Notes: generated from the sequence alone by a model not told the origin. 64,000 nucleotides of DNA from a virus (IMGVR_UViG_3300017963_000253:11134-75133), one strand, 5' to 3'. Positions 28,259 through 63,129 are shown, counted from the stretch's first letter. Translations and numbers: made by a program.

Positions 28259-28903
28259 ATGGATAGTCGAGAGCTGGCCCTTCGGGCCTACCGTTCCAAT
28301 CCCTCCAATTCCACCTTCCGGCGCGTCGAGTCGGAGTACCGCGGCTGGCTGACGACGGTTTCCGGAAGCGTCCTCCGGAGGTACCCAGGTTTGACCGGGG
28401 TCCGGGAGGACGTCTTGAACGAGGGCCTCCTGGCCCTCTCCCGGAGCGTCAGGCGGTTTCTCTGGTTCTGCGGGCGCTGCGGAGCGCCGTTCCTCGAGTT
28501 CTCGGACCTCCGCGCTCACGCCGCGGCGGAGCACCGCGTCCGCGGGGAGGTGGAGCTGGTCTCCCTCCGGAAGTTCGCGGAGCAGTCCGCCGGGTACGCC
28601 ATGAAGCGGACCGCGCTCCGGCTCTACCGTCCGGAGGTCCCCAGCGAGTTCTCGGAGCAGGTCCCGGACGAGCGCTGGAGCCGGGACGTCCTAGACGTGG
28701 AGCTGCTGGTCCGGCGCGCGGAGCTTCGGATGAGCCGGGACGCCCTCCACCTCCTCCACCGCGTTCTGGGGACGCCGGAGCCGGATCCCCTCGCCCCGGA
28801 GGAGCCGGGTCTCCCGGAGCTGAGGGACCTCCTCCGGGACCTCCCTCAGGCTCATCTTGGTTATGAGTCCCCGAAGGAGGCGACATGTCGGTACCGGAAC
28901 TAG
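28259..28903 (+). CDS. sigma70-family factor with inserted C2H2 zinc finger
   Basis: Region 2.2-like EDVLNEGLLALSRSVRRF; CGRCGAPFLEFSDLRAHAAAEH; region 2.3/2.4-like SLRKFAEQSAGYAMKR. Confidence 0.7.
   Translation: MDSRELALRAYRSNPSNSTFRRVESEYRGWLTTVSGSVLRRYPGLTGVREDVLNEGLLALSRSVRRFLWFCGRCGAPFLEFSDLRAHAAAEHRVRGEVELVSLRKFAEQSAGYAMKRTALRLYRPEVPSEFSEQVPDERWSRDVLDVELLVRRAELRMSRDALHLLHRVLGTPEPDPLAPEEPGLPELRDLLRDLPQAHLGYESPKEATCRYRN
28853..28868 (+). promoter_or_regulatory. phage promoter motif
   Basis: CATCTTGGTTATGAGT upstream of AGGAGG and the ATG at 28885. Confidence 0.65.
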
Positions 28904-29592
28904 AGGGACCTCGTTTCAAGCAACTGAACCTGAGCACGCTGCGGAAGACGTCCGCGGAGGTCCTGGGCTTCGAGCCCCAGGGTCGGAAGATCCGGGAGGC
29001 TCACGCGGAGGTGATGGCGGAGCTGGACCGCCGGAGGCACGAACTCCCCTACGTCTGCGGGCGGTGCAACTCCTCCTTGGACGGGGAGATGAGCAAGTGC
29101 TGGGCCTGCGGGTCCGTGATCCAGGACGAGGCGGAGGACGCGCCGCGGATGACCACTGAGGAGGTCGAGAGTCGCGCCGGGAAGCTGGGGATTGACCCTG
29201 GGGAGAAGGGGGAGGAGGAACTCCGCGCGGAGGTGGAGGCGGCGGAGAAGCGGAAGCGGAACCGCCGCGGGGACCTCGGGGGGATGGAGGCGGAGCGCCT
29301 GAACGAGCAGTTGACGGAGGCGATGGGGGACGGTTGGCGGAAGGATAGGACAAAGTTGTATATTTCCTATTTTGATCCAAGTGGTCAGAAGAGAATCGGA
29401 GTCTACAATCGTGGGCTTCAAGTACAATTTTCCGTCAATGATGGAGTTTTGGATCACTTCGAAAATTTGGAATTTTTGGACAAGGATGCACGACGCAGAC
29501 GGCACACGGGGCGGACTAACTATATCTATGTTGGGGACGTCTCCCGCGAGGCCTTAGAGGTCGCTCTCTTCGTTCTACGCAAGTACAGCTGA
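28885..29592 (+). CDS. zinc-ribbon-containing hypothetical protein
   Basis: CGRC...CWAC; strong RBS. Confidence 0.7.
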   Translation: MSVPELEGPRFKQLNLSTLRKTSAEVLGFEPQGRKIREAHAEVMAELDRRRHELPYVCGRCNSSLDGEMSKCWACGSVIQDEAEDAPRMTTEEVESRAGKLGIDPGEKGEEELRAEVEAAEKRKRNRRGDLGGMEAERLNEQLTEAMGDGWRKDRTKLYISYFDPSGQKRIGVYNRGLQVQFSVNDGVLDHFENLEFLDKDARRRRHTGRTNYIYVGDVSREALEVALFVLRKYS

Positions 29593-29603
29593 CGGGGCTT
29601 CTG

Positions 29604-30551
29604 ATGAAGCCTGAAGAGACGCTCGTCCTCGGGGCCGGTCCCGTGGGCTTGATTGCGGCGGAGATCCTGGGGGCGCGCTACGTGGTGGGGAAGGATCCCG
29701 GGGGTTCCAAGACCCTTCGCAACCTGGCTCCAACCTACCTCTGGTGGACCCCCTCTGTGGAGCGCTTCCTCCTGGATCTTGGGCTGAATTGGGGATCTCG
29801 CTGGGTTAAGTTTGGGTGGCTTTGCTCGGGTGAGGTTAGGGACGCCCCCTCCGAGGCGGACTTGAAGAGCTATTACCGGCGTAGCCGCGGGGGCGTCTCC
29901 GGGAAAGTACCCTCCTCCGTGGCCTCCTCCGGGAAGCCGGGGGAGATCGAGGTCTCCAGCGTTCCCCTGGAGCAGATAATCGACCTTCTCTTGGAGAGGA
30001 ACCTGATTTACGAGATGGAGGTGGAGTCTATCTTCCACTTGGGAACGGTGATCCGGTTCAATCAATCCCCGACGGTGGAGTTCCCCGCTACTACGTTGGT
30101 CAACACGCTCCCGAGGTCGGTCTTCTGTGAGATGATATTCCCGAAGATGGAGTTCCCACCGGAGGCAAAGGCGGGTTGGAAGACCTTCGTAAGTGGGGAC
30201 GCCTACACTAGTGCGTTGGACCGGGTATGGGAGGAGCGGGAGCTTGACTTCCTCTACGTAGCGGACGAATCGCTCCCGTTCGAGCGCGTGAAGTTCCTGC
30301 ATGATTCCTGGAAGAACGAGAGGTTCGTCTACGAGTTCAACGCGGTGTCAGTCCCGCCGGAATTCCTGGATCTGGTCCATGGGAAGCAGGTTTACTCCGC
30401 GCCGCTGCAGATCTCGGAGGTCTCCACCCGTCCCAGGGTGGAGGAGTTGGGGGGTAGGGTCCGGAACGTCGGGCGGTTGGCGCGGTGGGATCACTCTATC
30501 CGCCTTCACGACGTGATAGAGGAACTCTATCGCTGGAGGGATGTACGATGA
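29604..30551 (+). CDS. FAD-dependent oxidoreductase (UDP-galactopyranose mutase / amine-oxidase fold)
   Basis: VLGAGPVGL, LVNTLP, C-terminal VGRLARW. Confidence 0.75.
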   Translation: MKPEETLVLGAGPVGLIAAEILGARYVVGKDPGGSKTLRNLAPTYLWWTPSVERFLLDLGLNWGSRWVKFGWLCSGEVRDAPSEADLKSYYRRSRGGVSGKVPSSVASSGKPGEIEVSSVPLEQIIDLLLERNLIYEMEVESIFHLGTVIRFNQSPTVEFPATTLVNTLPRSVFCEMIFPKMEFPPEAKAGWKTFVSGDAYTSALDRVWEERELDFLYVADESLPFERVKFLHDSWKNERFVYEFNAVSVPPEFLDLVHGKQVYSAPLQISEVSTRPRVEELGGRVRNVGRLARWDHSIRLHDVIEELYRWRDVR

Positions 30552-31495
30552 AGGACGCGTTGGAGGAGATCTTCGAGACCCAGACCGCGTTCAACCGGAG
30601 GTTCTTCGCGGATCGTGGCTTGGACCTGGCGGAACTCTCCGGAGCGGACCGGGCGCAGTGGACGAAGCAATTCGTCCTCCACGTGGAGGGGGAGCTTCAC
30701 GAGCTACTCCGGGAGACGAACTGGAAGATGCATCGCCTGGAGGGGAAGCGGGTCAACCGGGGGAACGTTCTGGAGGAGTGGACGGACTGCTTCAAGTTCC
30801 TGCTCGGGCTCGCCAACGTCTGGGGGTTCTCCGCCTCCGAGGTCCTGGAGGAGTTCCGCCGGAAGTCCCGGGTGGTGGACTACCGTTACGGGATGGAGCA
30901 GCGTCTCCGGGCGATCTCTCCGGGGAGTCCGGTGGTGGCGGTGGACATCGACGGGGTTCTGAACGACTACCCAGGTTGCTTCCTCCGCTGGGTTTCCCCC
31001 CCAGCTGAAGAACCGTTCGAGACGCTTGCGGCGCTCCGGGAGAAGGTGGGTCCCAAGCGGTACCGGGAGATCAAGGACGAGTACCGGAAGAGCGGGGCGA
31101 AGCGGGAGCAGGGGGTTCGACCCGGTGCGCGGGAGATGCTCAACGGACTCCGCGCCGCCGGTTACTCCGTGGTCCTACTATCCAAGCGTCCCTACTGGCG
31201 GTTCTACCGGATCTACGCGGATACGCTGGAGTGGCTGGAGCGGAACGGGCTCCGCTGCGACGCGGTCCTCTTCCACCGGGAGAAGCACCGGAAGATCCTG
31301 GAGGACTTCCCTAACCTTATCGCGATGGTGGAGGACGACCCCGCGGTGGCGCGGGAGATCCTCTCCATCGGGGTGGAGGTCTTCTTGGTAGAGGGGGAGC
31401 TGAACGTAGGGGCGGAGGTACCCGGGGCAAACAGAATTTCCAACGTCGCGGACGTCGTGACGGAACTGGAGGAGATTGGGTATGAGTCACGATAG
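30548..31495 (+). CDS. dimeric dUTPase/MazG-like NTP pyrophosphatase fused to HAD 5'-nucleotidase
   Basis: ELHELLRETNWKMH, LEEWTDCFKF; DIDGVL, TLEWL, MVEDDP. Confidence 0.85.
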   Translation: MKDALEEIFETQTAFNRRFFADRGLDLAELSGADRAQWTKQFVLHVEGELHELLRETNWKMHRLEGKRVNRGNVLEEWTDCFKFLLGLANVWGFSASEVLEEFRRKSRVVDYRYGMEQRLRAISPGSPVVAVDIDGVLNDYPGCFLRWVSPPAEEPFETLAALREKVGPKRYREIKDEYRKSGAKREQGVRPGAREMLNGLRAAGYSVVLLSKRPYWRFYRIYADTLEWLERNGLRCDAVLFHREKHRKILEDFPNLIAMVEDDPAVAREILSIGVEVFLVEGELNVGAEVPGANRISNVADVVTELEEIGYESR

Positions 31496-32603
31496 AGTAG
31501 AGGAGATCCGGAAGTTGCGACGCCTGATGGGAACCGCTCCAGAGGCGGAGCCTGAGTTCGAGACGAAGTTCTACCGCGGGGTAGAGGGGATCCGCGTGAA
31601 GCTGGTAGATGGACCTCGGAACCCCTACCGGGCGATGTACGCGATGGGGGTCTCTACCTGGGGGCATATTCACTCTTTAGCTACTGACCGTTGGGAGGAT
31701 ACACCGCCGGAGGCCCGGGAGGCGGTAGTCCGGGCGGTCCTAGGGTTTAACGCCCTCCCGCTAGCGATGGAGGCCCCGAAGTTTACGTTCGAGGTCTATA
31801 ACCTTACGCGGTGGAGCTTCGATCAGATCGCCCGCGCGCGGATCGGGGCGGTCTTCGCTTCCCTCGGGACGCGGGATAACAACCATTTGGGGATCCCCTT
31901 CCGGATGCACGAGGCGACTTGGAGGAACGAGTCGAAGCGAGGTCTCTTTGTGGGCAACGCCAAGAACGCCAAGGACGCGTACCGGACGTTGGTGGAGAGT
32001 GGGAGGGGGAGTTGGCAGGAGGCGCGGACGTTCCTCCCGATCTCGGTGGTCCATCGCTTCACGATGTCGATCAACTTCCTTGCCCTCCGGGGGATGTGCG
32101 CCCGGAGGATGACCTTCTCGGAGGCGGAGGACACTGTTGCGGTGGCGTGGCTCCTTCGAGACCGTTTGATGAAGGCGGACGCCTACCCGCTTCTCGCCGC
32201 CCATCTTCGACCCGCTTGTGACGGCGCGGGGACCTGCCGGTATCACAAGGCTCACACGATTTCAGAGGCCTTTGGGTGTCTTTTCAAGAGCTGTGGTCGA
32301 CACCCGGTGAAGAGCGCCCCCGGGAACCCGGATTTCGATTACGAGTATGCGGACTTTAACGTCAGTTGTTCGGACCGAAAGACGATTCAGGATCAGCTGC
32401 AGATTTCGATCCCGGAGCGGACCATGGATCCTGACAAGGTGGAACTTACTTCCCGCGACCGTTTCCTCTTAGGATTTCAGGCTCAGAATGAGGAGGAGTT
32501 TGAAGATTGGAGGTGGTACGCGCAGGCGGAGAGAGGGGTGGATGCAAACCCGTTCCCCCTCCCGGATTCCGGGGCTGCAGTTGAACCGGTGGACCTCCCG
32601 TGA
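31482..32603 (+). CDS. divergent ThyX-family flavin enzyme
   Basis: FTFEVYNLTRWSFDQIARAR, QEARTFLP, C-terminal Cys cluster; canonical active-site motifs altered. Confidence 0.8.
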   Translation: MSHDRVEEIRKLRRLMGTAPEAEPEFETKFYRGVEGIRVKLVDGPRNPYRAMYAMGVSTWGHIHSLATDRWEDTPPEAREAVVRAVLGFNALPLAMEAPKFTFEVYNLTRWSFDQIARARIGAVFASLGTRDNNHLGIPFRMHEATWRNESKRGLFVGNAKNAKDAYRTLVESGRGSWQEARTFLPISVVHRFTMSINFLALRGMCARRMTFSEAEDTVAVAWLLRDRLMKADAYPLLAAHLRPACDGAGTCRYHKAHTISEAFGCLFKSCGRHPVKSAPGNPDFDYEYADFNVSCSDRKTIQDQLQISIPERTMDPDKVELTSRDRFLLGFQAQNEEEFEDWRWYAQAERGVDANPFPLPDSGAAVEPVDLP

Positions 32604-35210: not shown

Positions 35211-36423
35211 GATCAACGTCTTGGAGGCAGCTCGGGAACGGATAGCGCGGGTTTTCGACGATTTTGAGAGAATTTATGTGGCGTTTAGTGGGGGTAAGGA
35301 CTCAACTGTGATGATGCACTTGGCGTGTGAAGAGGCACGCCGTCGGGAGTGTAGAGTTGGGATCTTAATGGTGGATTTGGAAGGTTACTTTGAAATCACG
35401 GTGAAACACTGCGTTGAAATGTTTGAAATGTACGCGGATGTGATAGAGCCGTTTTGGATTTGTCTTCCGATTCACCTTCGTAATGCAGTGAGTGTGTTTG
35501 AGCCGTTTTGGGTTTGTTGGGATCCTAAAGCAGAAGGGGCTTGGGTTCGACGACCTCCAAAGGAAGCGATTGTTGATTCAGGGTACTTTCCTTTTTTCCG
35601 TGAAGGTATGGAGTTTGAGGAATTTGTGCCGCTATTTGGGGATTGGTACGCAGATGGGAAGCGGTGTGCGTGTCTTGTGGGTATCCGCACGGACGAGAGT
35701 TTGAATCGCTTTCGAACAATTGCGATTTCCCAAAAGGAGAGATTTGAGGGTCTTTCTTGGACGACGAAGATCACCAAGGATCTCTATAACGTATACCCTA
35801 TTTACGATTGGTCTGTTGAAGATATTTGGGTATATCACGCGAAGTTTGGAGATAAGCCTCACAATCGGCTGTACGATTTGATGCACCAAGCGGGTATGAC
35901 GCCTTCCCAGATGCGAATTTGTCAACCTTATGGAGACGATCAAAGGCGTAACTTGTGGCTATTTCACATTATCGAACCTAAGACTTGGGCCAGGATTGTT
36001 GCACGTGTGAATGGTGCTAATGGGGGAGCACTTTATATTCAGGAGTGGGGAAATATTAATGGTTATCGAAAGATAACTAAACCTGTTGGGCATACTTGGA
36101 GAAGTTTCTCAGAACTCCTCGTGGCTTCGATGCCAGAAAAGTCAAAGATTCACTATCGTAACAAGATCCTTCTTTTTGAAAAGTGGTGGACAGAGCGTGG
36201 TTACCCTGAAGGGATTCCTGATGAGGCGGATCCACGAATGGAGGCTAATCGCAAAGCTCCAAGTTGGCGGAGAGTATGTAAATCGTTACTTAGAAACGAT
36301 TATTGGTGTAAGGGACTTGGATTTAGTCAGCAGAAGAGTGCTGCCTACAAGGCTTACTTGGAGTTGATGAAGCGGCGGAAGAAATCTTGGGGTGTCAGTG
36401 ATGTTAAGTTGGGGTTTGTATGA
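35191..36423 (+). CDS. ibrA: PAPS-reductase-family PP-loop protein with DUF3440 (IbrA/YbdN family)
   Basis: AFSGGKDS, VGIRTDESLNR, YPIYDW, MRICQPYG, PSWRRVCKSLLRNDYWCKGLGF. Confidence 0.9.
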   Translation: MLKRRLEINVLEAARERIARVFDDFERIYVAFSGGKDSTVMMHLACEEARRRECRVGILMVDLEGYFEITVKHCVEMFEMYADVIEPFWICLPIHLRNAVSVFEPFWVCWDPKAEGAWVRRPPKEAIVDSGYFPFFREGMEFEEFVPLFGDWYADGKRCACLVGIRTDESLNRFRTIAISQKERFEGLSWTTKITKDLYNVYPIYDWSVEDIWVYHAKFGDKPHNRLYDLMHQAGMTPSQMRICQPYGDDQRRNLWLFHIIEPKTWARIVARVNGANGGALYIQEWGNINGYRKITKPVGHTWRSFSELLVASMPEKSKIHYRNKILLFEKWWTERGYPEGIPDEADPRMEANRKAPSWRRVCKSLLRNDYWCKGLGFSQQKSAAYKAYLELMKRRKKSWGVSDVKLGFV

Positions 36424-39347
36424 GAAGTCCACGTGTTAAGAGACTTCAAGAGAACGGGTTTCGATCTGGAGCTTCTCTTGTAGCTGATGCGGACACTCAG
36501 GCGTTTGCGGAGGATCAAGTAGAGCACCGCGCGCAGTACCAGCAGACCGCTGCGTCCGTGGAGGAGGTCAAGGACAAGCGGAGCGTTGAGGACCTCCAGG
36601 ACGCTACGGACTTCGACGACTTGAAGAAGGCGGCTTGGACCTTCAATCCGGGGACGGAGTACTACCACGGGTGGTCGGAGGGAAACGACATAATCTTACT
36701 TCGGAGGGATCCGGAGACGGGGCGGCGGATCCGGGAGATTCACCCGTTTGAGTGGTACTTCTACGTCACTCGGGAGGACTATGAGAGTGTACCCAAGGAT
36801 TCCTGGGATTGGCTCTGTAGTTGTGGAACGCTCGCGGAGAAGGTGGTTCCGGACGAGAACTATCCTGATTTGTACTATCGGGTTTACGTAAAGAACCCTG
36901 TTCCGAAGTTGGATAAGAAGAGGATCTTTTCGAATGTCGGAGATCCGGATCGTGGTGCGAATTGGGCGATTCCTTTCTATCGAGGTGAGAGTTCAAGATC
37001 TATCAGATGGCCACGGGACCGGGAGAAGTGGACGAGAGTTCACAAAGTGATCAATTGGTGTGAGCGAAAGGGAGTGACACCGTTGGAGGCGGATCTTACG
37101 CCGAAGCAGCGGTTTCTCACGGATTACGATATAACGATCACTCCGAAATTTCGGATAGGGTTCTTCGATATTGAGACGGATGACTCTGTTGGAGGGTTCG
37201 ATAAGAAGGAGCAGTGTCGAATTCTCTCAATAGCTTGGGAGGGGGACCGCTTCGAGGAAGATCCAACTGATTGTGGATTCTTGTTGCTACAGGAGGAGAC
37301 GGACGAGGCTGAGAAGAAGTTGCTTTTGGAGTTCAAGCGTAGTTGCGTCAATAAATACGACGTATTGTCGGCTTGGAATGGGACTGGGTTTGACTTTCCT
37401 GTTCTATTCTATCGGTTTTGGAAGCACAAAATTCGAATCGACTGGCGTTATCACCTCTTTGCAGATCCGCTTCCTATCTTCAAGCGGCACTACGTTAGAG
37501 CCGGAGGGGATGCGATTTCCTACTCCCTTGATTCTATCGGGGAGAAGGTTCTGAAGATGAATAAGATCGACTGGAGGACGATCTTTCGGAAACGTCACCC
37601 TGGGGTGGTCCCGAAGTTCATCAACCTCTACCGGCACGACCCGGAGCTTTTGGAGGAGTACAACCGTCTGGACGCCACAATCCTCCGGAAGCTGGAGGCG
37701 TTCACCGGGTTCGTGGCGATCGAGCAGATCTTCTGCCGGATTGCGAACGGGTTCCCGAACGATTTTCAGATTTCGACTAAGGTGGACCAGCTCTTACTGA
37801 AGAAGGGGTTCAAGGAGGGGCATCACTTCCCGACGAGATACTGGTCTCCTGGTAAGCCGGAGAAGTACGAAGGAGCTTACGTATTTCCGCCGGTTCGCGG
37901 GATGCACCGGAACGTTGCCGCGTTTGACTTCAAGAGCCTGTACCCCTCGATGATCTCCAGTTTCAATATCTCCCCGGAGACAATCGTGAAGGAGGAGAAC
38001 AGGGCGGATTTTGAGGAGAAGGACCTTTGCAGGATCCCGGAACTTGATTTGGAGCGGGAGGACGGGGACGGGGAGATAGAGGTCTTGCAGAAGGGTGGTT
38101 CCACCTTCAGGTTGGACAAGCAGGGGTACCTCTCGCAGATGTTTGAGCGTACTTTGATGAGGAGGAAGAAGTACCAGGACCTTCAGAAGGAGCGTTTGAA
38201 GGTCACCGGGACGACTCAGGACGATCTCTTCCTCCTCTACTATCGCTTGGCTTACTCCTTCAAGCGGTTGGGGTTATCCTTCTACGGAGATATCGGGAAC
38301 TCCAGGTCCAGGTTCTACGACACTGAGGTGGCGGAGGCGATCACTCTCTCTGGTCAGTTCTTTATCAAGGAAACAGCTAAATACGCCCAAGAGTGCGGAA
38401 TGATTCCACTTTATGGGGACACCGATTCCATCTACGTCCAGTTAGCACCTACTGAACAGGAGTGGGATTCGCAGGAGGAGCGGATCGCGGAGTTGAACGA
38501 AATTGGGGAACGCTTCGTGGAGTATTGTCAGGAGCGTTATCTGAAGATCCTCAAGGAGCACAATTGCAACCTGGATTGGAACCTTATCTTCCTGGAGTTC
38601 GAGGACACCTACGACCGGATTTTCTTCATCGTCAAGAAGCGGTACGCCGGGAGGATGCTCTCCCACAAGGGGGGGAAGACGGACCACGTGGAGGTCAAGG
38701 GTCTCGAGGTGATGCGGAGCGATTGCTCCGGGAAAACGCGGGCGCTTCAGCAAGCGGTGTTGGACGGAATTCTCATGACGGGGATGACCGCGGAGCAGCT
38801 GGAGCGGGAACTGATAGAGCCGGAGTTCAACAGGTGCGTCTCCGGTGAACTTACCGTGGACGAGGTCTGCATCGGGAAGGGGATCTCCAAGGAGCCGGAG
38901 AAGTACAAGACGACCCCGCTCCACGTGGCTTTGGCACAGGAGATCAAGGACCACGGGCGGGAGTTCTTCGTTGGGATGAAGGTGGAGTACGTGGTCACCG
39001 GGGTGAAGCCGAAGCTCCAGGGCGTGACGCGAGAGGAGTACGAGGACTCGAACGGGGAGTTGGTTTACGACCCGGAGTACTACTGGGATCGGGTGGTCTA
39101 CCCCGCCTCGATGAGGATCCTGGAGGTCTGTTACCCGGAGAAGGACTGGACTCGCTGGAAGGTGGCGGACAATCGGAGGCGGCGGAAATTGGTGGACCGC
39201 TACAAGATCTGGTTAGCTGACCCGAAGCGGGTAGAGAAGGCGCTCCTCCAGATCCGGGAGAATAAGCGTGGACTCCTAGGACCGCCGGAACTGGCGGAAC
39301 TCCGGACCGCGCCCCGCGTCCGCATCTTGGATAGGAGTGAGGGATGA
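36420..39347 (+). CDS. family B DNA polymerase with 3'-5' exonuclease
   Basis: FDIET, WNGTGFDF, FDFKSLYPS, KRLGLSFYG, YGDTDS, KKRY, VKGLE. Confidence 0.95.
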   Translation: MRSPRVKRLQENGFRSGASLVADADTQAFAEDQVEHRAQYQQTAASVEEVKDKRSVEDLQDATDFDDLKKAAWTFNPGTEYYHGWSEGNDIILLRRDPETGRRIREIHPFEWYFYVTREDYESVPKDSWDWLCSCGTLAEKVVPDENYPDLYYRVYVKNPVPKLDKKRIFSNVGDPDRGANWAIPFYRGESSRSIRWPRDREKWTRVHKVINWCERKGVTPLEADLTPKQRFLTDYDITITPKFRIGFFDIETDDSVGGFDKKEQCRILSIAWEGDRFEEDPTDCGFLLLQEETDEAEKKLLLEFKRSCVNKYDVLSAWNGTGFDFPVLFYRFWKHKIRIDWRYHLFADPLPIFKRHYVRAGGDAISYSLDSIGEKVLKMNKIDWRTIFRKRHPGVVPKFINLYRHDPELLEEYNRLDATILRKLEAFTGFVAIEQIFCRIANGFPNDFQISTKVDQLLLKKGFKEGHHFPTRYWSPGKPEKYEGAYVFPPVRGMHRNVAAFDFKSLYPSMISSFNISPETIVKEENRADFEEKDLCRIPELDLEREDGDGEIEVLQKGGSTFRLDKQGYLSQMFERTLMRRKKYQDLQKERLKVTGTTQDDLFLLYYRLAYSFKRLGLSFYGDIGNSRSRFYDTEVAEAITLSGQFFIKETAKYAQECGMIPLYGDTDSIYVQLAPTEQEWDSQEERIAELNEIGERFVEYCQERYLKILKEHNCNLDWNLIFLEFEDTYDRIFFIVKKRYAGRMLSHKGGKTDHVEVKGLEVMRSDCSGKTRALQQAVLDGILMTGMTAEQLERELIEPEFNRCVSGELTVDEVCIGKGISKEPEKYKTTPLHVALAQEIKDHGREFFVGMKVEYVVTGVKPKLQGVTREEYEDSNGELVYDPEYYWDRVVYPASMRILEVCYPEKDWTRWKVADNRRRRKLVDRYKIWLADPKRVEKALLQIRENKRGLLGPPELAELRTAPRVRILDRSEG
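39323..39338 (+). promoter_or_regulatory. phage promoter motif
   Basis: CATCTTGGATAGGAGT, starting 21 nt before the ATG at 39344. Confidence 0.65.
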
Positions 39348-51003: not shown

Positions 51004-51019
51004 CATCTCGGTTAGGAGT
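51004..51019 (+). promoter_or_regulatory. phage promoter motif
   Basis: CATCTCGGTTAGGAGT, starting 20 nt before the ATG at 51024. Confidence 0.65.
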
Positions 51020-54421: not shown

Positions 54422-57097
54422 TTGTCGGATTCCACCGTAGTGATAAAGGGTGGTCAGGTTACGTGCAAAAAGTCGGACTCTGGCGATCCAGACTCCGCGT
54501 TCATTCGGAGGTACTTCACCGCGGAGGGAGAGAGTCTAGAGGACTCTCTCTGTCTCAGCACGAAGTACGTTACGAGAACCGCTTCGATCACGGGGGCGGA
54601 CGGGGAGGAGGTCTTCCGGCAGGAGAACGTGGAGGTCCCGGAGGGTTGGAGCCAGCTCGCCACCAACGTGGTCGCCTCGAAGTACTTCCGCGGAAAGCCG
54701 GGGGAGGAGAACCGGGAGTCCTCCGTTAAGGGGATGATCTCCCGGGTAGTAAAGCAGATCTCCACCTGGGGGACGGAGGGCGGATACTTTACTTATCAGG
54801 AGGAGAAGTTGACCTTCGAGGCGGAGATGGCGCACGTCCTCCTGAGGCAGCGGGCTACGTTCAACTCCCCGGTCTGGTTCAACGTGGGAGTGGAGGCGGA
54901 GCCGCAGTGTTCCGCCTGCTTCATCAACTCCGTGGACGACACCCTCTCCTCTATCCTGAAGCTGGCGCGGACGGAGGGGATGATCTTTAAGTACGGCTCC
55001 GGAGCCGGGGTCAACCTCTCCCCCCTCCGCGGGGCGAAGGAGGGTCTCTCCGGAGGGGGGAGTGCCTCCGGTCCGGTCTCATTCATGAAGGGGTTCGATG
55101 CGTTCGCCGGGGTGATCAAGAGCGGGGGGAAGACGCGCCGCGCCGCGAAGCTGATCTGCCTTGACGTGGACCACCCGGACGTCCGGGAGTTCGTCACCTG
55201 CAAGCTGGCGGAGGAGGAGAAGGCGCGGGCGCTCCGGGAGGCGGGGTACTCCGGGGGGATAGAGGGGGATGCCTACGCGTCGGTCTTCTTTCAGAACGCT
55301 AACCACTCCGTTCGGGTCTCCGACGCGTTCATGCACGCCGCTGTATCCGGGTCTTACTGGGACCTAAAGTCCCGCCGGGACGGGGAGAACGTGGAGACGG
55401 TGAACGCCTCCGAACTTCTGGACCTCATTGCGGAGACCGCCTGGGCTTGCGGGGACCCGGGGATTCAGTTCGACGAAGCGGTGAACTTCTGGCACACCTG
55501 CCCGGGGCGGGGGAAGATCAACGCCTCGAACCCCTGTGGGGAGTTCGTCTTCCTAGACAACTCCGCCTGCAACCTGGCCTCCCTGAACCTGGTGAAGTTC
55601 GAGGACTCGAACGGGTACTTCGACTCCGCGTCGTTCGAGCACGTGGTCCGGTTGATGACCGTGGCTCAGGAGATCCTGGTGGACAACGCGCGGTACCCCA
55701 CGCCGGAGATCGAGTCTAACTCCAAGCGCTTCCGTCCGCTCGGGCTCGGGTACGCCAACCTCGGGGCGCTCCTGATGCGGCGGGCTCTTCCTTACGACTC
55801 CGAGGAGGCGCGGAACTACGCTGCGGGGATCACCGCTTTGATGACCGCTACCGCCTACCACGCCAGCGCGCGGCTGGCGCGCCGGAAGGGACCGTTTACG
55901 GGTTACGACGCGCGGGAGATGAAGCCGGTCCTCCTGAAGCACCTGGACGCGATTGGGAAGCATCGGAGCGTACCCGGGGCTTGGGGAGAACTCCTAAAGC
56001 GCGCGGAGGAGACGTTCTCCCGTGCGCTCCTGATCGGGGACAACTACGGGTTCCGGAACGCTCAGGTCACGCTCCTCGCACCGACGGGGACGATCGCGTT
56101 CATGATGGACTGCGAGACGACCGGGGTAGAGCCGGACCTCTCCCTCCGGAAGCGGAAGTCCCTCGTCGGGGGCGGGGAGTTGATCTACTCAAACGGATCC
56201 CTGGTGCGTGCGTTGGACGTTCTGGGGTACGATTCGACGGAGGTGGAACTCATCTTGGAGCACCTCGGGGAGCGTGGGACCCTAGTGGATTCGGAGGTCC
56301 TACCGGAGCACCTTCCGGTCTTCGACTGCGCGCTACCCGACGCGGTGGGTCGCTCTATCCCGTACCAAGGGCACCTGAAGATGCTCGCCGCGGTCCAGCC
56401 CTTCCTCTCCGGTGCGATCTCCAAGACGGTGAACCTCCCAGTAGACACTAAGGTGGAGGACGTACGCGCCGTCTTCGTCGAAGCTTGGGAGATGGGGCTA
56501 AAGTCCATTACCGTCTACCGGGACGGTTCGAAGGACGCGCAACCCGTGGAAGCGGTGGGGAAGACCTGGGAGGCTCCCCCACCCGTGAAGTTCTCCGGTC
56601 GGGAGAAGCTCCCGGAGACGCGCGCCTCCCTGACTCACAAGATCGACATCTCCGGGCACGAGGGGTACGTGATCGCCGGGATGTACCCGGACGGGCGACT
56701 CGGGGAGGTCTTCGTGGTGATGGCCAAGTCCGGGAGTACGGTCTCCGGGCTCCTGGACGCCTGGGCGACGGCGGTCTCCATCGGGATCCAGTACGGGGTT
56801 CCCTACGCGGTCCTCCGCGAGAAGTTCTCGAAGACCCGGTTCGAGCCCGCGGGGTACTCCAACCGCGGGCTGGTGACCTCCATCCTCGACTACCTCTTCG
56901 ACTGGCTGGAGGAGTGGTTCCCCGGGGGGAAGCGGAAGTTCTCCCGCGCGGAGGACGGTCCCCCTCGGGAGTTAACGGAGGCGGCGCGGACGCTCGGGGA
57001 CTCCGGTCCCCCCTGCCCGGACTGCGGCTCGATCATGGAGCCCTCCGGAGCCTGTCACCGCTGTCCCGTCTGCGGGTCCTCCTCCGGTTGCGGCTGA
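54422..57097 (+). CDS. nrdJ: class II (adenosylcobalamin-dependent) ribonucleotide reductase
   Basis: FNSPVWFN, QCSACFI, ASNPCGE, APTGTI, GAISKTVN, TSCPD-like domain, C-terminal Zn ribbon. Confidence 0.95.
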   Translation: MSDSTVVIKGGQVTCKKSDSGDPDSAFIRRYFTAEGESLEDSLCLSTKYVTRTASITGADGEEVFRQENVEVPEGWSQLATNVVASKYFRGKPGEENRESSVKGMISRVVKQISTWGTEGGYFTYQEEKLTFEAEMAHVLLRQRATFNSPVWFNVGVEAEPQCSACFINSVDDTLSSILKLARTEGMIFKYGSGAGVNLSPLRGAKEGLSGGGSASGPVSFMKGFDAFAGVIKSGGKTRRAAKLICLDVDHPDVREFVTCKLAEEEKARALREAGYSGGIEGDAYASVFFQNANHSVRVSDAFMHAAVSGSYWDLKSRRDGENVETVNASELLDLIAETAWACGDPGIQFDEAVNFWHTCPGRGKINASNPCGEFVFLDNSACNLASLNLVKFEDSNGYFDSASFEHVVRLMTVAQEILVDNARYPTPEIESNSKRFRPLGLGYANLGALLMRRALPYDSEEARNYAAGITALMTATAYHASARLARRKGPFTGYDAREMKPVLLKHLDAIGKHRSVPGAWGELLKRAEETFSRALLIGDNYGFRNAQVTLLAPTGTIAFMMDCETTGVEPDLSLRKRKSLVGGGELIYSNGSLVRALDVLGYDSTEVELILEHLGERGTLVDSEVLPEHLPVFDCALPDAVGRSIPYQGHLKMLAAVQPFLSGAISKTVNLPVDTKVEDVRAVFVEAWEMGLKSITVYRDGSKDAQPVEAVGKTWEAPPPVKFSGREKLPETRASLTHKIDISGHEGYVIAGMYPDGRLGEVFVVMAKSGSTVSGLLDAWATAVSIGIQYGVPYAVLREKFSKTRFEPAGYSNRGLVTSILDYLFDWLEEWFPGGKRKFSRAEDGPPRELTEAARTLGDSGPPCPDCGSIMEPSGACHRCPVCGSSSGCG

Positions 57098-57122: not shown

Positions 57123-57241
57123 GGTAGGAAGGGGAGAGAGATCGGACGCCCCTCCGTTCCTACCCGCGGACCTCCGCGGAGACGTCCATGGGCTTTCTTC
57201 CTTTCCCCGCCGTTACAGCCTCTCTCCTCAGTGAGGTCCGC
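57123..57241 (+). ncRNA. structured intergenic element / putative sRNA 1
   Basis: TATAAT at 57114; stems GGTAGGAA/TTCCTACC and GCGGACCTC/GAGGTCCGC. Confidence 0.35.
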
Positions 57242-57246
57242 AACTT

Positions 57247-57262
57247 CATCTTGGATAGTAGT
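57247..57262 (+). promoter_or_regulatory. phage promoter motif
   Basis: CATCTTGGATAGTAGT. Confidence 0.65.
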
Positions 57263-57266: not shown

Positions 57267-57336
57267 ACAAGGGTGAGGGTTCCCGGGTAACGGATCCCCC
57301 CTCCTGATTCCCGGGAGCGCCTCGCCCACTTTTCTT
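57267..57336 (+). ncRNA. putative ~70-nt hairpin sRNA / attenuator with anti-SD loop
   Basis: 17-bp stem 57271-57287/57310-57327, loop TAACGGATCCCCCCTCCTGATT, T-rich tail. Confidence 0.45.
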
Positions 57337-57350
57337 CTGAAGGGGGAACC

Positions 57351-57770
57351 TTGAAAGACCTGAGAACGAAGGTGGAGAATAGCCTGGAACTCCCCGCGCA
57401 GTTAAAGCCGGAGGAGGTCGAGGCGATGCGCCGCCTCCAGCGGGAGCTGGAGCAAGCCGGGTACGCCGTCCGCCAGTTAGCGTTAGCCCCCGGGGGGAAC
57501 CCCCTCGCGGTTGTGGCGCGTAGGGAAGACGGGAAGCAACCGCTCCGGACGCTGATCGCGGCTTGCCGGACCCTCCTCCGCGCTTCGGAGGAGATCTCCC
57601 TTGGGGAGCGTGGGATCTCCGCGGAGGAGGCGGAGACCTTAGCGGCGGCTCGTCTGACCCTTCGTCAGACCCGGCAGCTCTTAACCGTGAAGCGGCGGGA
57701 GACGGTAGGGGCTTGCGCGCACCGAGAGATGGCGCGCGCGGTGGAGAAGTCTGAGGACTCTAAGGAATAA
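57351..57770 (+). CDS. hypothetical protein
   Basis: ORF with RBS and TTG start. Confidence 0.6.
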   Translation: MKDLRTKVENSLELPAQLKPEEVEAMRRLQRELEQAGYAVRQLALAPGGNPLAVVARREDGKQPLRTLIAACRTLLRASEEISLGERGISAEEAETLAAARLTLRQTRQLLTVKRRETVGACAHREMARAVEKSEDSKE

Positions 57771-57795: not shown

Positions 57796-58026
57796 ATGCC
57801 GTTAACTACAGTACTCAGGATCCTGAGTGCGAAGCTCCTGACCCTTCCCAGCGAGTTCTGGCATCCGGCCGGAGACGCGGCGCGGAGCGGTGCTGACGCT
57901 CTGTACGAGTTAGGAGAATCGATTACGTTGGAACCGCGCTGTTACAGGCAGCGTCTGGTTCGAGGCGACCCGGGTGGTCAGCTGAAGAAGTCCCACCCGG
58001 GATCGTCGTTTCTTCTGCAGAGGTAG
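57796..58026 (+). CDS. hypothetical protein
   Basis: GGAGGAG RBS. Confidence 0.5.
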   Translation: MPLTTVLRILSAKLLTLPSEFWHPAGDAARSGADALYELGESITLEPRCYRQRLVRGDPGGQLKKSHPGSSFLLQR

Positions 58027-58034
58027 CTTTGGAG

Positions 58035-58583: not shown

Positions 58584-58593
58584 GAGCATCTGG

Positions 58594-59442
58594 ATGAAGG
58601 ACGCGGAGAAGATAGTGCGGGCGGTCGCGGAGCTGGACGCGGCGCTGGACGGACTGGACAACGCGGAGGTCTACTACGCCCTCGCTCAGTCGAAGCGGGT
58701 CCCCCCGGGGCGGGGGATGTTCGCACAGCAGAAGGCGGAGTTGGAGGCGTTTGAGGACGGGCGATTGATCGGAGCGGTGGATGTGAAAAATGAAACGGGG
58801 ATGCACCCACTCGTAGATGACGTAGTTGATACTCATAATACCTCCGTCGTTAGGATACCTCGGATCCCACGCCTCCCCTGGGACCAGTTCTTCATGCTCC
58901 ACGCGCACCTAGCGGCGACCCGCTCCACCTGCGACCGGGGGCCGGAACTCTACTTCGACCCGGGGCGGCGCGGGGTTGGGGCGGTCATCGTCCGGGAGAA
59001 GCGGATCGTCGCCGGGGGGTACAACGGGTCTCCGCCGGGGCAACCTCATTGCTACGCCCTGAAGTGCGACTGTTGCGGGGTAGAGTTTCCGGAGAGTCAC
59101 ATCGAGAGAGCGGGTTTCGTAGATGGGCAGAGATGTCCCGCTTGCGCGCCCGGGAAGCTTTTCGGTGGGCACCTCCTTCGGGACGGTCACTGCGTGAGGA
59201 CGCTCCACGCGGAGGAGAACGCGCTCCTCCAGTGCGCGCTGGACGGGGTCTCCCCGGAAGGAGCTACCGTCTACACGACCGCCTCCCCCTGCTGGGACTG
59301 CGCGAAGCGCCTCGTACGGGTCGGGGTCTCCCGCCTCGTCTACTCAGCGGAGTACGGTTCCCGCTACGGACTCTCTGAGGACGCCGAAGGTCTCCTGGAG
59401 GATGCCGGGGTGGAGATGGAGCACCTGGAGGTCTCCCTTTGA
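58594..59442 (+). CDS. dCMP deaminase with N-terminal extension and Zn-ribbon insert
   Basis: WDQFFM..A...ATRSTC, GYNGSP, HAEENA, SPCWDC. Confidence 0.9.
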   Translation: MKDAEKIVRAVAELDAALDGLDNAEVYYALAQSKRVPPGRGMFAQQKAELEAFEDGRLIGAVDVKNETGMHPLVDDVVDTHNTSVVRIPRIPRLPWDQFFMLHAHLAATRSTCDRGPELYFDPGRRGVGAVIVREKRIVAGGYNGSPPGQPHCYALKCDCCGVEFPESHIERAGFVDGQRCPACAPGKLFGGHLLRDGHCVRTLHAEENALLQCALDGVSPEGATVYTTASPCWDCAKRLVRVGVSRLVYSAEYGSRYGLSEDAEGLLEDAGVEMEHLEVSL

Positions 59443-60317
59443 GGGACTACCGAACCGCGCTGATCGACGGGTCCGGGTTCGCCAAGGCGGCGTACAACCC
59501 GATGCTCCCGGAGCAGGCTCCCCACCGCTTCCTCCTCCGGATCTTCAAGGTCAACGCGGAGTACCCGGGGGTGAAGATCACCGTGGTCTGGGACCCGCGG
59601 GACAACAAGTCGGAGCGGCTGAAGCGCTTCCTGGACTATAAGAAGCGGCGGATCGGGAAGTCCTCCTTCCTGAAGGACGAGAACTACCTCCTGATGCTCC
59701 GGGAGATCTACCGGATCCTCCCCGCGCTCGGGGTCTCCCAGGCCTGGGCGGACGGTTGGGAGGCGGACGACGTGCTCGGGACGCTGGCGCGGAACGCCCG
59801 GGAGCGTCCCGTCCTCGTTCTGACGCGGGACAAGGACATGCTGCAGCTGGTCCGGGAGGACGTCCACGTGCTACTCCGGAGGGGAAGCGCGGAGCGGATC
59901 TACACGCCGCGGCGGATAGAGCGGGAGTGGGGCTTCCCGGCGGAGGTCATTACGGACTGGAAGGCCCTCGCCGGGGACACCGGGGACGATGTCCAGGGGA
60001 TCCCGGGCCTAGGAGAGAAGGCCGCGACCGCGATCCTCCGGAGCAGACCCTCCGCGGTCCGCTCTATCCTGAACAAGGCGGACCCCCTGACACCGGAGGA
60101 CCTCCCCGGGGACCTCGGGATCGGGAAGCGCTTCGCCAACCTCCTCCGGAAAGCGGCGGCGGATCCGGAGCGCCTCCGCTTGATGAGGTGGCTGGTCTCC
60201 CTCCACGAGGTGAGACCCACCTTCCGGAGGGCGAAGCGGGACCTCCGGAGAGCGAAGCGGCTGATGCTCCGGTTGGAACTGAACAAGCTAACGGCTAGAC
60301 TTCGGGAGTTCGAGTAG
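59439..60317 (+). CDS. 5'-3' exonuclease / flap endonuclease (PolI N-terminal family)
   Basis: LIDGS, WEADDVLGTL, RDKDMLQL, ALAGDTGDDVQGIPGLGEKAA. Confidence 0.92.
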   Translation: MRDYRTALIDGSGFAKAAYNPMLPEQAPHRFLLRIFKVNAEYPGVKITVVWDPRDNKSERLKRFLDYKKRRIGKSSFLKDENYLLMLREIYRILPALGVSQAWADGWEADDVLGTLARNARERPVLVLTRDKDMLQLVREDVHVLLRRGSAERIYTPRRIEREWGFPAEVITDWKALAGDTGDDVQGIPGLGEKAATAILRSRPSAVRSILNKADPLTPEDLPGDLGIGKRFANLLRKAAADPERLRLMRWLVSLHEVRPTFRRAKRDLRRAKRLMLRLELNKLTARLREFE

Positions 60318-60330
60318 GAGGAAGAGAGGT

Positions 60331-60945
60331 ATGAAGAGCTGGCTGGACGAACGGGAGGAGTATCAAATCTGGGCGGAGGTGGAGGAACCCATCGCGGTCC
60401 TGGAGGACAAGTCCGCGTGGTACTGGACCGCCCTCTACGTCCTGGGGGTGGTTTTCACCCTCGGGTTCCTTCTCTTCGGGATCTCCCTCCGGAGGTTTCG
60501 GGAGGACTTCGCTACTACGTTGATCACTCGCCAGGGGTACCCGGCGCGTTGGGCCTCCCTCTCCCGGCGGGTGGTGGTTCACGAGGGGAGGCACACGACT
60601 CAGGCGACTTGGTTCGGTTGGCTCTTCTTCCCGATAGCCTGGACCTCCCGCCGCCTCCGGGCTTGGTTAGGGGTCCCGGGGTTCGCGGCGGTCTACTTCC
60701 TCCTCCCCGTTCCCGTCGGGTTCGCTCTTGGGCGCTTCTTCCTGGAGCTAGACGCGGACAAGCGGGCTTGGGCTCGTTGCCTCTCGGAGCAGAGTATGAC
60801 CCCGGCGGACGTGACCTCCCACGCGGAGCGGAGGTGGAGAACCCTCTCCGGGGGTTCCTACTTCTGGGCGGTCCCCACCCCGTTCGCGCGGTACTTCTAC
60901 CGGAGCGCGGCGAAGCGCTCCCTGGTCAATTGGAGGGGAGAATGA
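60331..60945 (+). CDS. membrane protein with HExxH motif
   Basis: HEGRH, hydrophobic segments, downstream LELDA. Confidence 0.65.
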   Translation: MKSWLDEREEYQIWAEVEEPIAVLEDKSAWYWTALYVLGVVFTLGFLLFGISLRRFREDFATTLITRQGYPARWASLSRRVVVHEGRHTTQATWFGWLFFPIAWTSRRLRAWLGVPGFAAVYFLLPVPVGFALGRFFLELDADKRAWARCLSEQSMTPADVTSHAERRWRTLSGGSYFWAVPTPFARYFYRSAAKRSLVNWRGE

Positions 60946-61283
60946 GCCTAGAGCGTAAGATCCAGATCGGGGCTAAGGTGGAGTTTCGGGTTTCCTTTCA
61001 CCGCAGGGCGATGGTTCGGGACCGGGTGTCGGAGGGTAGTAACCCGGACTGGACGGAGGCTTGGACGGAGGAGTTGATCCTCCAGGACGAGGGTTCGGTC
61101 CTCTGCGCGGGGGACGCCTTCGAGGACGCGCTTCCGGACTTGAAGGGAGCCGGGACCGTTTCCCTGGAGTGCGCGCTAGCGGACGCGCTGGCGCGGACGG
61201 GGGACGGGGACGTTCGGGAGGAGATGAGGGACAAGGTGGAGCGCGCGGTTGACGCGTTCGAGCGGAAGGACGAGCCCTCCTGA
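60942..61283 (+). CDS. hypothetical protein
   Basis: ATGA overlap with RBS. Confidence 0.6.
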   Translation: MSLERKIQIGAKVEFRVSFHRRAMVRDRVSEGSNPDWTEAWTEELILQDEGSVLCAGDAFEDALPDLKGAGTVSLECALADALARTGDGDVREEMRDKVERAVDAFERKDEPS

Positions 61284-61369
61284 CTCTCATCCTGATGGAA
61301 AGCGCGAAACCTCATTTAGTACCGTTCCAGCGTAAGTAACCTACACTACGCAGGAGAGGAGACGCGCAA

Positions 61370-62836
61370 ATGTCCGATGATTACACTTACCCGCTTCCCC
61401 CGAACCTTTTCGACGGGCAGTTGGGTGCGATGGCGACGGAGGAGGGGCTCGTCGACCTTCTGAACGAGCTGAACGGTCGAATCGCCCTCCTGGAGGGTCC
61501 GAAGGTGGACGTTTGGGCGAACGGGTTGATCGGGGACGACGTCAACTTCGACGGGCTCTCCGAGGAGACCCCGGTCAAGTCCCTCTCGAAGCTCGCGTCG
61601 ATGCTTCGTTACTTCGTCCAGGTGAACGTCGCCGCGCATTTGACCGGGGACCTCTTCGAGGACGTTGGGCAGGTCTACTTCGACCTTCAGCCCGCGGCTG
61701 GCGTGAAAGTGGTTATCGAGGGGGAGAACGAGGTGACGGTCCTCGACGACAACGGCGGGAACGACTACACCTCCGACGCCGCGGGAATCAACTCCATCGG
61801 GGTGACGGGGGCCTTCACCCCAACCCCGGCACCCGGTTCCAAGTTCACCCAGTGGCTGGAGATGAGGACCGGGGACACCGCGGGTCAAGTTCGGACGGTA
61901 CAGAAGAACACGGCGGACTTGGTCACCCTGCATCGGGAGTTCTCTCAGATCCCGGCGGTTGGGGACAAGTTTCGCTTCGTGCGTCCGAAGACGGAGGTCC
62001 GCAACGCCTCCGTGGTGATCCAGAACCGCGGAGCCGGAACCGTCTACGTTCAGAACCTGTACTTCGGAGCCACCGCGACGGCGAACCTCATCGTTCAGTT
62101 CTCCAACCCGGTGAAGCTCTCCCACCTGATGAACAACTCCTCGAACCTCAACGCGTATAAGTTCGAGAGCTGTAGGTTTCCGGAGTTAGGAGACCGTCTC
62201 ATGGACACGGAGACGTATACCCAGAACGATTCCCTTCTCGGGAAGAGCTGCGGCGTCTCCCAGGGGAACGGGGGATCGTTTTTTGGGTTTTACTTCCTGC
62301 TCAATTCCGTCTGCCGTGCAAATGCTTGCGTGGGTTGGGCGATAATTAACTTTAAGACACAGGCGGTGCAGATCGGGAATGGGTCCAAGTCCCTCTTCGA
62401 GCTGTTGAACGGTTGCCCGTTCAACGGGTTATCGACCCCGAATATAACTACTAACGCGGGCTACGCTACGACGGAGATTGGTGGTCACCCGGTCTACGGG
62501 GCGTTCGGGGGGATCGATATGAACAACTCCGATCTCTGTATCGGGGACGGGGTGGATATCTCCGGTTCCACCAATGGGATCCGAGCGATCTACTCTCAGC
62601 TCCGCATGCACGAGGTAACGGGCTCGAATACCGCGTGTGGTGTCCTGGCGCAGCACTTGACTTCCATCCAGGTCCGCCCAACGAAGACTCCGACGCTCAG
62701 TGGAAACGGTGGAACCGTAGACGTCTCGGTGGACGGGGCGACGGAGGCGGTGGACTGGCCCACCATAATCGCATCGGGGTTCACGGACGCGACCCAGTTG
62801 ATCCGGGCCGGAGTCATTGCGGTCCCGGGTGACTAA
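61370..62836 (+). CDS. beta-helix tail fibre/spike-like protein outside the tail module
   Basis: GDDVNFDGLSEETPVKSL (DUF1565-like), Asn/Gly/Ser-rich beta-helix repeats. Confidence 0.65.
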   Translation: MSDDYTYPLPPNLFDGQLGAMATEEGLVDLLNELNGRIALLEGPKVDVWANGLIGDDVNFDGLSEETPVKSLSKLASMLRYFVQVNVAAHLTGDLFEDVGQVYFDLQPAAGVKVVIEGENEVTVLDDNGGNDYTSDAAGINSIGVTGAFTPTPAPGSKFTQWLEMRTGDTAGQVRTVQKNTADLVTLHREFSQIPAVGDKFRFVRPKTEVRNASVVIQNRGAGTVYVQNLYFGATATANLIVQFSNPVKLSHLMNNSSNLNAYKFESCRFPELGDRLMDTETYTQNDSLLGKSCGVSQGNGGSFFGFYFLLNSVCRANACVGWAIINFKTQAVQIGNGSKSLFELLNGCPFNGLSTPNITTNAGYATTEIGGHPVYGAFGGIDMNNSDLCIGDGVDISGSTNGIRAIYSQLRMHEVTGSNTACGVLAQHLTSIQVRPTKTPTLSGNGGTVDVSVDGATEAVDWPTIIASGFTDATQLIRAGVIAVPGD

Positions 62837-62886
62837 CAATTAACCCCTAAAGCTCCGCTCCGAAGGGGCGGGGGAGGAGAAGAGAG

Positions 62887-63087
62887 ATGGCTAATTGTCT
62901 AGGTTGCGCTCAGGAGATCCAGGTCGAGGCCCGGGAGTGCCCCCGCTGTCACCGGAAGGGATGCGACCAGTGCCTCACCCTCCACGGCCGTGGGGACGGG
63001 ACTCAGCACTGCGAGCGGTGCAAGGCGGAGGACGAGAGTGCTCTGAATCCGGATGCTCACGCGTTCAATGGCACCGTCCCGGAGTAA
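62887..63087 (+). CDS. small double zinc-finger protein
   Basis: Four CxxC pairs. Confidence 0.7.
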   Translation: MANCLGCAQEIQVEARECPRCHRKGCDQCLTLHGRGDGTQHCERCKAEDESALNPDAHAFNGTVPE

Positions 63088-63113
63088 CCCACCTTCGTAA
63101 CCTCCCGGAGACT

Positions 63114-63129
63114 CATCTCGGTTAGAAGA
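63114..63129 (+). promoter_or_regulatory. phage promoter motif
   Basis: CATCTCGGTTAGAAGA, starting 20 nt before the GTG at 63134. Confidence 0.6.

Follow-up and report, generated by a model that had tools for sequence, protein, structure and literature searches.

The 64,000-nucleotide window analysed here (bases 11134-75133 of the IMG/VR virus record IMGVR_UViG_3300017963_000253, which is 75,133 bp long and estimated to be 74% complete) carries a recurrent 16-bp motif on its gene strand, close to the starts of operons for replication, recombination and nucleotide modification. We consider, on balance, that this motif is a phage-specific promoter from which mRNAs would start at or just before start codons. 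This view is drawn from the distance between a TA dinucleotide in the motif and the start codon, the presence of a ribosome-binding site in every case where this distance is large, a terminator just ahead of one copy, and a footprint of the motif that is retained before a helicase gene in six genomes. Repeated phage-specific promoters with some leaderless transcripts are of a well-known kind, and a repeated promoter box specific to the phage is in itself common and expected in large phage genomes; the novelty lies in the sequence, in the lineage and in the protein proposed to read the motif, which is sigma-like and has a C2H2 zinc finger.

An exact search of the window for CATCTYGGWTAKNAGT returned four matches (28853, 39323, 51004 and 57247), all of them on the plus strand, compared with none in 100 shuffles. 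Allowing up to two mismatches added a fifth site with a single mismatch (63114), making five matches in all where 0.27 would be expected, and gave none on the minus strand. A first-pass annotation of this DNA had described the motif as recurring on the plus strand at operon starts, which these counts bear out, and had called for a motif scan of the whole genome; a position-weight scan of the complete record retrieves these five sites only, at 31-36 bits, the next best site scoring 14 bits. All copies are located in the non-structural half, and the part of the record that encodes virion and lysis functions has none. Three weaker copies had also been proposed, of which one holds up. R1, a sequence-only Infernal model built from the motif sites, scores the five strong copies (A to E in Table 1) with E values of 2e-4 to 1e-3 and recovers the site at 18740 (CATTTTGGGATAGATG, with one inserted base; copy H) at 0.015, but misses those at 21228 and 17396 at E<10. 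The last of these lacks the TA and was dropped. The site at 21228 is a possible degenerate copy, and at the orthologous spot the nearest relative, G001, has a CATCGCG-TTAACA box. De novo repeat-family searches over intergenic windows were dominated by purine-rich, coding-like words and did not recover the motif, and a scan of viral contigs for CTCATCTYGGWTAKNAGT gave 18 single-copy matches that look like chance.

The invariant positions of the motif read C-A-T-(C)-T-.-G-G-.-T-A-.-.-(A)-G, or CATCT..GG.TA..AG in the five strong copies. Counted from the TA, the hexamers are TATGAG, TAGGAG, TAGGAG, TAGTAG, TAGAAG and TAGATG, giving a -10-like TAKNAG whose sixth position (-7) is not T in any of the six copies and is G in all five strong ones; the relatives likewise lack a T at this position. 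Conservation extends further 5' than the 16-mer, as 'ACT' abuts most copies, and in the strong copies CC is invariant at -9/-8 from the motif start, accompanied in four of the five by G at -7 and C at -6 (tCCGc). The earlier statement that the copies share no -35 element therefore requires amendment, although this upstream CCG element, about 14-15 bp from the TA, is not spaced as a canonical -35 would be. Only two of the five strong copies contain GGAG and H has none, the positions that a ribosome site would need (K and N) being the variable ones. The inverted repeat CTCAT-N7-ATGAG, which had been suggested to represent a pseudo-palindromic operator, is found at copy A only and forms a hairpin no better than those of shuffled sequences (z +0.6), and a dyad-symmetric operator was accordingly rejected as a shared feature.

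The T of the TA precedes the start codons at 39344, 51024, 63134 and 18761 by 12, 11, 11 and 11 nt, in agreement with the 11-12 nt claimed initially. Between the motif and the start codon there are 4-5 nt in copies B, C, E and H, about 16-18 nt in A and 88 nt in D. Counting 20-21 nt from the start of the motif leads, in copy A, to the G/A just before AAGGAGG-N4-ATG (28885) and, in copy D, to a point 3-4 nt before a 17-bp hairpin, which is followed by ACUUUUCUUCU, a ribosome site and the TTG at 57351; both placements, just before AGGAGG and just before the hairpin, can be read directly from the DNA as annotated. Each of the long gaps between motif and start codon (17-18 nt at A in this phage and in G001, 88 nt at D, 122 nt at 30752 in G001 and 15-28 nt in G003) holds a GGAGG-type site. 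A variable distance, with a ribosome site wherever it is long, fits a signal for the start of transcription and not a ribosome-binding element. By a strict criterion (at least 4 nt at a spacing of 3-11), 45 of 70 genes of the phage possess a ribosome site; there is none before 18761 or 63134, nor before the orthologues of the helicase gene at 18761, and AGGAG is found at a spacing of 5-6 before 39344 and 51024. For these last two genes a leaderless mRNA need not be the sole route of translation, the AGGAG of the motif appearing ideally spaced. For the gene after copy E the TTG at 63155, which is in frame and has a separate GGGGAGG, is an alternative start.

The most informative copy is H. Only 38 nt separate the U-tract of the terminator that closes the virion and lysis block from the helicase ATG, and copy H, which fills the 3' half of this interval, is the only promoter-like element within it, with no GGAG at a usable spacing. 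We compared this start with those in four syntenic phage genomes identified by protein-anchored scans (G001, 80.6 kb; G002, 105 kb; G003, 110 kb; G004, 106 kb), whose proteins are mostly 40-70% identical to those of the phage under study (G0), and in a 4.3-kb contig (L194, JBDHAB010000115.1), which encodes a 56% identical helicase preceded by a similar motif-like box. The sequences are ACTCATTTTGGGATAGATGAGGGC-ATG in G0, ACTCATCCCGGTTAACCGGATCCG-ATG in L194, CACATCGCTCGGTTATAACGGGTT-ATG in G001, GCTCATCCCGCCTACCTCCCCGC-ATG in G004, TTCGTCCCGGATATCTGCCCGGC-GTG in G003 and GCGCATTCTCCCTTAATTCCTGAC-ATG in G002. All six genomes have CAT (CGT in G003) 20-22 nt upstream of the start codon and TA 11-12 nt upstream, no GGAG within 4-12 nt and no purine-rich site, in flanks that have otherwise diverged.

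At the other sites resemblance is closest in G001, where a model trained on G0 and run with filters off identified two clear copies (E values of 0.0085 and 0.085), both of them immediately before genes and in the gene orientation, and where degenerate copies are present at the sites orthologous to A, B and the helicase. Related boxes occur 12-23 nt before the orthologues of gene 39344 in G001-G004, the box in G003 being non-coding, and before gene 28885 in G001 and G004, where they end likewise 9-12 nt before AGGAGG. Genome-specific variants, some picked by eye, include CTCATCyC(C)GCCTACC, found twice in G004, and C(A/G)TCCSGGATA in G003. The loose core CAT[CT]-N2-3-GG-N0-1-[AT]TA is present in plus to minus strand counts of 5:0 in G001, 5:1 in G002 and 5:0 in G003, where 0.7-2 would be expected. 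As far as can be judged from these sequences, the uniform 16-mer is a property of G0 and its nearest relative. Synteny is kept across sites A, B and H, the gene order at site C differs between G0 and G001, and the genes downstream of E are unique to G0.

From these positions we infer that transcription starts at the motif, which would form the core of a promoter for a middle class of genes concerned with DNA metabolism. Such a promoter would consist of a minimal TA(K)NAG resembling a -10 element, preceded by the 8-bp box CATCTYGG and then, about another 9 bp upstream, by a weak CCG element. RNA polymerase would begin transcription approximately 20-21 nt downstream of the first C in the motif. 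The mRNA would be leaderless or nearly so where a gene starts at this point (the helicase at 18761, 39344, 51024 and perhaps 63134), and would otherwise begin just before a normal ribosome site (28885) or a structured leader (57351). Primary sigma factors insert the T at -7 into a pocket. The motif hexamer has no T here, and we infer from this that a phage factor is needed for its recognition. The best candidate would be the neighbouring sigma-like protein, itself expressed from a conserved host-type -35/-10 promoter, so that host polymerase would make the sigma-like protein, which in turn would switch on the motif promoters. G001, G002 and G004 retain a match to CTTTAC(A/T)-N17-TAnnnn ahead of their orthologues of the sigma-like gene, and this element is probably the early promoter of the phage group.

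The sigma-like protein has 214 residues and no match in Pfam or PHROG. Its family, which numbers about 27 representative sequences, shares an invariant CxxC...HxxxxH in agreement with classical C2H2 fingers, and the finger is positioned between a region 2.2-like helix (residues 49-66) and a region 2.3/2.4-like helix (103-123). An AlphaFold (AF2) model was obtained with a pLDDT (predicted local distance difference test) of 87.6. Among the 50 Foldseek matches listed for it almost all are chains of sigma factors, with weak E values of at least 0.009. In a structural all-against-all search (VIA-align), sigma factors predominate in the top 30 or so rows, the matches to sigma domain 2 having Z scores of 8-10 and a root mean square deviation (rmsd) of 2.5-3.0 Å over 85-90 residues; among the sigma factors are SigB (Z 10.0), SigW (Z 8.6, rmsd 3.0 Å over 89 residues), the Pribnow-box domain of SigC (Z 8.3) and T4 gp55 (PDB 7d7d chain F, Z 7.6). 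A likeness to a sigma region 4 is seen in the C-terminal helices (Z 5.5). Neighbours in the ESM Atlas, by features as well as by structure, carry Sigma70_r2, and this Pfam family matches the G003 orthologue weakly (E 0.026). The gene is present in all five phage genomes (G0 and G001-G004); among the relatives clear motif copies are found in G001, and looser variants elsewhere. A search for a T7-type RNA polymerase found none, but as control genomes gave no signal either it is uninformative. G003 encodes, besides its C2H2 sigma-like orthologue, a second and bona fide Sigma70_r2 protein (G003:C1:48114-48329, minus strand; 53 bits in a 437-residue frame).

It is a tentative suggestion, based on the sigma domain 2 fold, the adjacency of gene and motif and a hexamer without the canonical -10 T, that this protein reads the motif. 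In an equally speculative extension, the motif would define a promoter class that has no canonical -35 hexamer but only the weak CCG element upstream, and is read by a phage sigma factor in which a C2H2 finger replaces the -10 recognition loop. The finger would read the duplex CATCTYGG immediately upstream of a minimal TA melting site, giving leaderless mRNAs for replication, recombination and nucleotide-modification genes, and the box would co-evolve with the finger in each lineage. The boxes in question are CATCTYGG in G0, CATTTYGG in G001, CATCCGGG in G003 and CATCYCGCC in G004. If the motif is a promoter, it marks out the middle-gene transcription units of this phage lineage, whose conserved helicase would be translated from a leaderless mRNA. 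It offers in addition a concrete DNA target for testing a sigma domain 2 fold that carries a eukaryote-style C2H2 finger, a protein that, if this assignment is true, would represent a novel mode of DNA recognition by a sigma factor.

Late or middle promoters read by phage sigma factors are exemplified by the T4 late promoter TATAAATA, read with gp55, and by those of SPO1, read with gp28 and gp33/34. The motif resembles these in being a short phage-specific box around -10 with little or no -35, repeated on the same strand before one temporal class of genes, and in the presence of a small divergent phage-encoded sigma factor, which here is a candidate by fold. It differs from them in sequence, in preceding DNA-metabolism genes rather than late genes, and in the classical C2H2 finger of the candidate sigma. 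There is also a likeness to the -10-only leaderless promoters of Deinococcus-Thermus and Actinobacteria (PMC12340547, PMC3160421), which have TA at about -11/-12, no ribosome site and no strong -35, as is seen at the helicase start in six genomes. In leaderless bacterial genes the first T of TANNNT is located about 12 nt upstream of the start (PMC3160421) and the -10 motif about 6-7 bp before the open reading frame (ORF), with experimental proof in Deinococcus (PMC12340547). In contrast to TANNNT, the phage motif lacks the final T (G in all five strong copies) and has an invariant 8-bp CATCTYGG abutting the TA, and its copies are near-identical and phage-specific whereas TANNNT is a loose host consensus.

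Several observations weigh against a promoter of this kind. Every positional test run fits a leaderless promoter, as was originally claimed, but before 39344 and 51024 the AGGAG of the motif is also at a perfect spacing for a ribosome site. Copies A and B lie in coding sequence, where CGCATC of copy B specifies a conserved Arg-Ile, and a terminator-like hairpin comes immediately after copy D. In G002, G003 and G004 the G0-trained model has no convincing match (best E values of 0.13-1.2), and the loose core is only 3-5 fold enriched over block shuffles. Since matches to this model are clear only in G001, conservation beyond that genome depends on looser, partly hand-picked resemblances. One G004 copy, CTCATCACGGATAGAAG, is directly followed by ATG, which places its TA too near for a leaderless transcript. 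The sigma assignment is at the level of fold only, with Foldseek E values of at least 0.009 and with Z scores of 8-10, values that chance matches between helical folds can also reach. The phage sequence was encountered in DNA runs only, from two metagenomes (sediment and seawater), and in no RNA run.

The strongest competitor, although we consider it rather unlikely, is that the motif is an operator for a DNA-binding regulator outside RNA polymerase, either the C2H2 protein or another phage protein, which represses or activates transcription starting elsewhere in the manner of the stoperators of Cluster A mycobacteriophages. An asymmetric element with many copies in a single orientation at gene boundaries would suit such a role, as would the bona fide classical zinc finger of the neighbouring protein and the location of copies A and B inside operons, where read-through is expected. 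However, an operator does not account for the TA 11-12 nt from four start codons or for a helicase gene without a ribosome site in six genomes, there is no other promoter candidate in the 38 nt after the terminator ending at 18712, and apart from its finger the protein is modelled with the fold of sigma domain 2.

A promoter is also to be preferred to a signal that acts in RNA, namely an extended ribosome-binding or translational-operator sequence on a polycistronic mRNA, comparable to the start-associated sequence (SAS) of Cluster K mycobacteriophages or to the targets of T4 RegA, which we regard as improbable. The SAS has a 13-bp consensus, GGGATAGGAGCCC, is found, in virtually every copy, 3-7 bp before a start codon (PMC3203893) and is still of unknown function (PMC12699233). 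Like the SAS, the motif is found in one orientation, on the gene strand, in the non-structural half only and mostly a few bases (4-5 nt) before ATG, and copy B includes GGATAGGAG, nine bases of the SAS consensus; the AGGAG at a spacing of 5-6 before 39344 and 51024 would also be in keeping with such a function. On the other hand, the distance to the start is 16 nt for copy A and 88 nt for copy D, each of these gaps contains a ribosome site of its own, GGAG is missing from three of the five strong copies as well as from H, and the helicase orthologues keep the TA without a purine-rich site. Identity with the SAS itself was rejected: none of the six sites matches its consensus even at three mismatches (two being the limit applied), the window shows no enrichment (33 matches at up to three mismatches compared with 44.6 expected), and the spacing rule of 3-7 bp fails at A and D. 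Unlike the SAS, moreover, the motif does not conserve an AGGAG core and is not flanked by the 17-bp inverted repeats of the extended form (ESAS). A sequence one mismatch from the SAS consensus, GGGATAGGAGCGC, is present at 63194-63206 on the minus, non-coding strand, within gene 63134-63913 and 65 nt after copy E, probably by chance.

Cleavage by a phage or host endoribonuclease, whereby polycistronic transcripts would be cut just before start codons or ribosome sites to leave processed leaderless mRNAs, would fit the strand specificity and the positions relative to starts, but is very unlikely given that no nuclease candidate was found among the genes scanned, that the terminator before H leaves little upstream transcript to process, and that the TA of the motif is like that of a DNA promoter and is correctly spaced. 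We give hardly any credence to a remnant of recombination at module boundaries without a role in expression, or to chance: the different gene order in G0 and G001 at C and the restriction to G0 of the genes downstream of E would be compatible with a remnant, but synteny is conserved across A, B and H, the spacing to start codons is not expected of recombination scars, and chance is excluded by the shuffles.

Table 1. Motif copies and associated features, numbered from the first base of the window
Feature	Position	Strand	Remarks
Intrinsic terminator closing the virion/lysis block, then UUUUCUUUU	18679..18712	+	15-bp stem, dG -25.5 kcal/mol, z -4.4, 0/200 shuffles as stable
Weaker motif copy H (CATTTTGGGATAGATG)	18740..18755	+	R1 E 0.015; T of TA 11 nt before ATG 18761 of superfamily 2 (SF2) helicase; no ribosome site
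Possible degenerate copy (CATCTGGGGTAAAAC)	21228..21242	+	72 nt before ATG 21300, AAGGAG between; orthologous region in G001 CATCGCGTTAACA
Putative host-type promoter of sigma-like gene, TTTACA-N17-TTTAAT	28196..28224	+	Sequence reading; conserved in G001, G002 and G004
214-residue sigma-like protein with C2H2 finger, candidate motif reader	28259..28903	+	Fold and family evidence
Motif copy A, in non-conserved 3' tail of sigma-like ORF	28853..28868	+	Precedes gene 28885 and nucleotide-modification operon up to polB
Motif copy B, in last 8 codons of polB	39323..39338	+	T of TA 12 nt before ATG 39344
Motif copy C, 2 nt past stop of amidase-domain gene	51004..51019	+	T of TA 11 nt before ATG 51024; best R1 score (E 2e-4)
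Motif copy D, in 253-nt gap after class II ribonucleotide reductase gene	57247..57262	+	Exact match; found by R1
17-bp hairpin and ACUUUUCUUCU	57271..57338	+	dG -38 kcal/mol, z -3.7; begins about 4 nt downstream of the predicted copy D start
Motif copy E, 1 mismatch	63114..63129	+	T of TA 11 nt before GTG 63134

The window has a G+C content of 64% and essentially all of its genes are on the plus strand. Virion and lysis genes occupy the left part up to about 18.6 kb, and are followed in order by genes for the SF2 helicase (18761), an initiator-like protein, a DnaC-like loader (22881), DnaB (23504), a serine recombinase (27269) and the sigma-like protein (28259). A nucleotide-metabolism block then runs into the family-B polymerase gene polB (36420-39347). 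Gene 39344, after copy B, encodes a 199-residue protein of unknown function and precedes genes for RecA-like and SbcD/SbcC-like proteins, a single-stranded DNA-binding protein (SSB), a DNA methylase, RuvC and the amidase-domain protein. The class II ribonucleotide reductase (54422-57097) is next, and then a glycosylase-like protein, a dCMP deaminase and a 5'-3' exonuclease. The hairpin after copy D could serve gene 57351 as an attenuator-type leader, or could be where an RNA of about 70 nt ends. Upstream of this copy, directly after the reductase stop codon, there is a canonical TATAAT without a -35 (57114), followed by a long imperfect hairpin (approximately 57123-57212); these possibly represent a second small transcript, or else a terminator or processing structure. 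Rfam recognised no family in the window at the gathering threshold.

The phage belongs to a lineage without a cultured member, as neither a megablast search with an 8-kb stretch nor tblastn searches with the sigma-like protein and the helicase found a match in cultured phages, and a search of 50,697 phage records gave none. With the helicase as query, L194 was the sole match in species-representative genomes; this contig sits in a metagenome-assembled genome bin of the Gemmatimonadota, which provides a weak lead to the host phylum. The polB query had no match among genome contigs, and the ribonucleotide reductase, a query poorly suited to this purpose, retrieved from metagenome contigs only cellular homologues of about 50% identity and no phage relatives.

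Near the end of the G001 record (approximately 77,990-79,540 of the reverse complement; L028, the first ~2.6 kb of the record), an AT-rich repeat of about 80 nt, TCATATTTAAATCTTAGCACAGGGAAAGATTAGGTCAATAGGGAAACTGTATTTTTTTTTGAAAAAGTGTATC, is present three times, in a part whose counterpart is missing from the G0 record. In G0 itself an extremely AT-rich island (26815-27268, e.g. TTAAGTAATTCCAAGAACTTAAAGCTAATAATTTATTTTATATCTGG) contrasts with the surrounding 64% G+C and contains, immediately upstream of the serine recombinase gene, a small ORF (26900-27145); the island could have a regulatory or origin function, or be a foreign insert. The G+C content also falls, to 47-51%, between 34000 and 38000, across the ParB-like and PP-loop genes and the 5' part of polB. 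G004 (L188-L193), which is circularly permuted and has a G+C content of 70%, has an HNH-endonuclease-like ORF inserted between the reductase gene and the next motif-like box, and its helicase matches as two pieces about 880 nt apart, while polB of G002 has an insertion of about 2 kb; these insertions may be inteins or homing elements.

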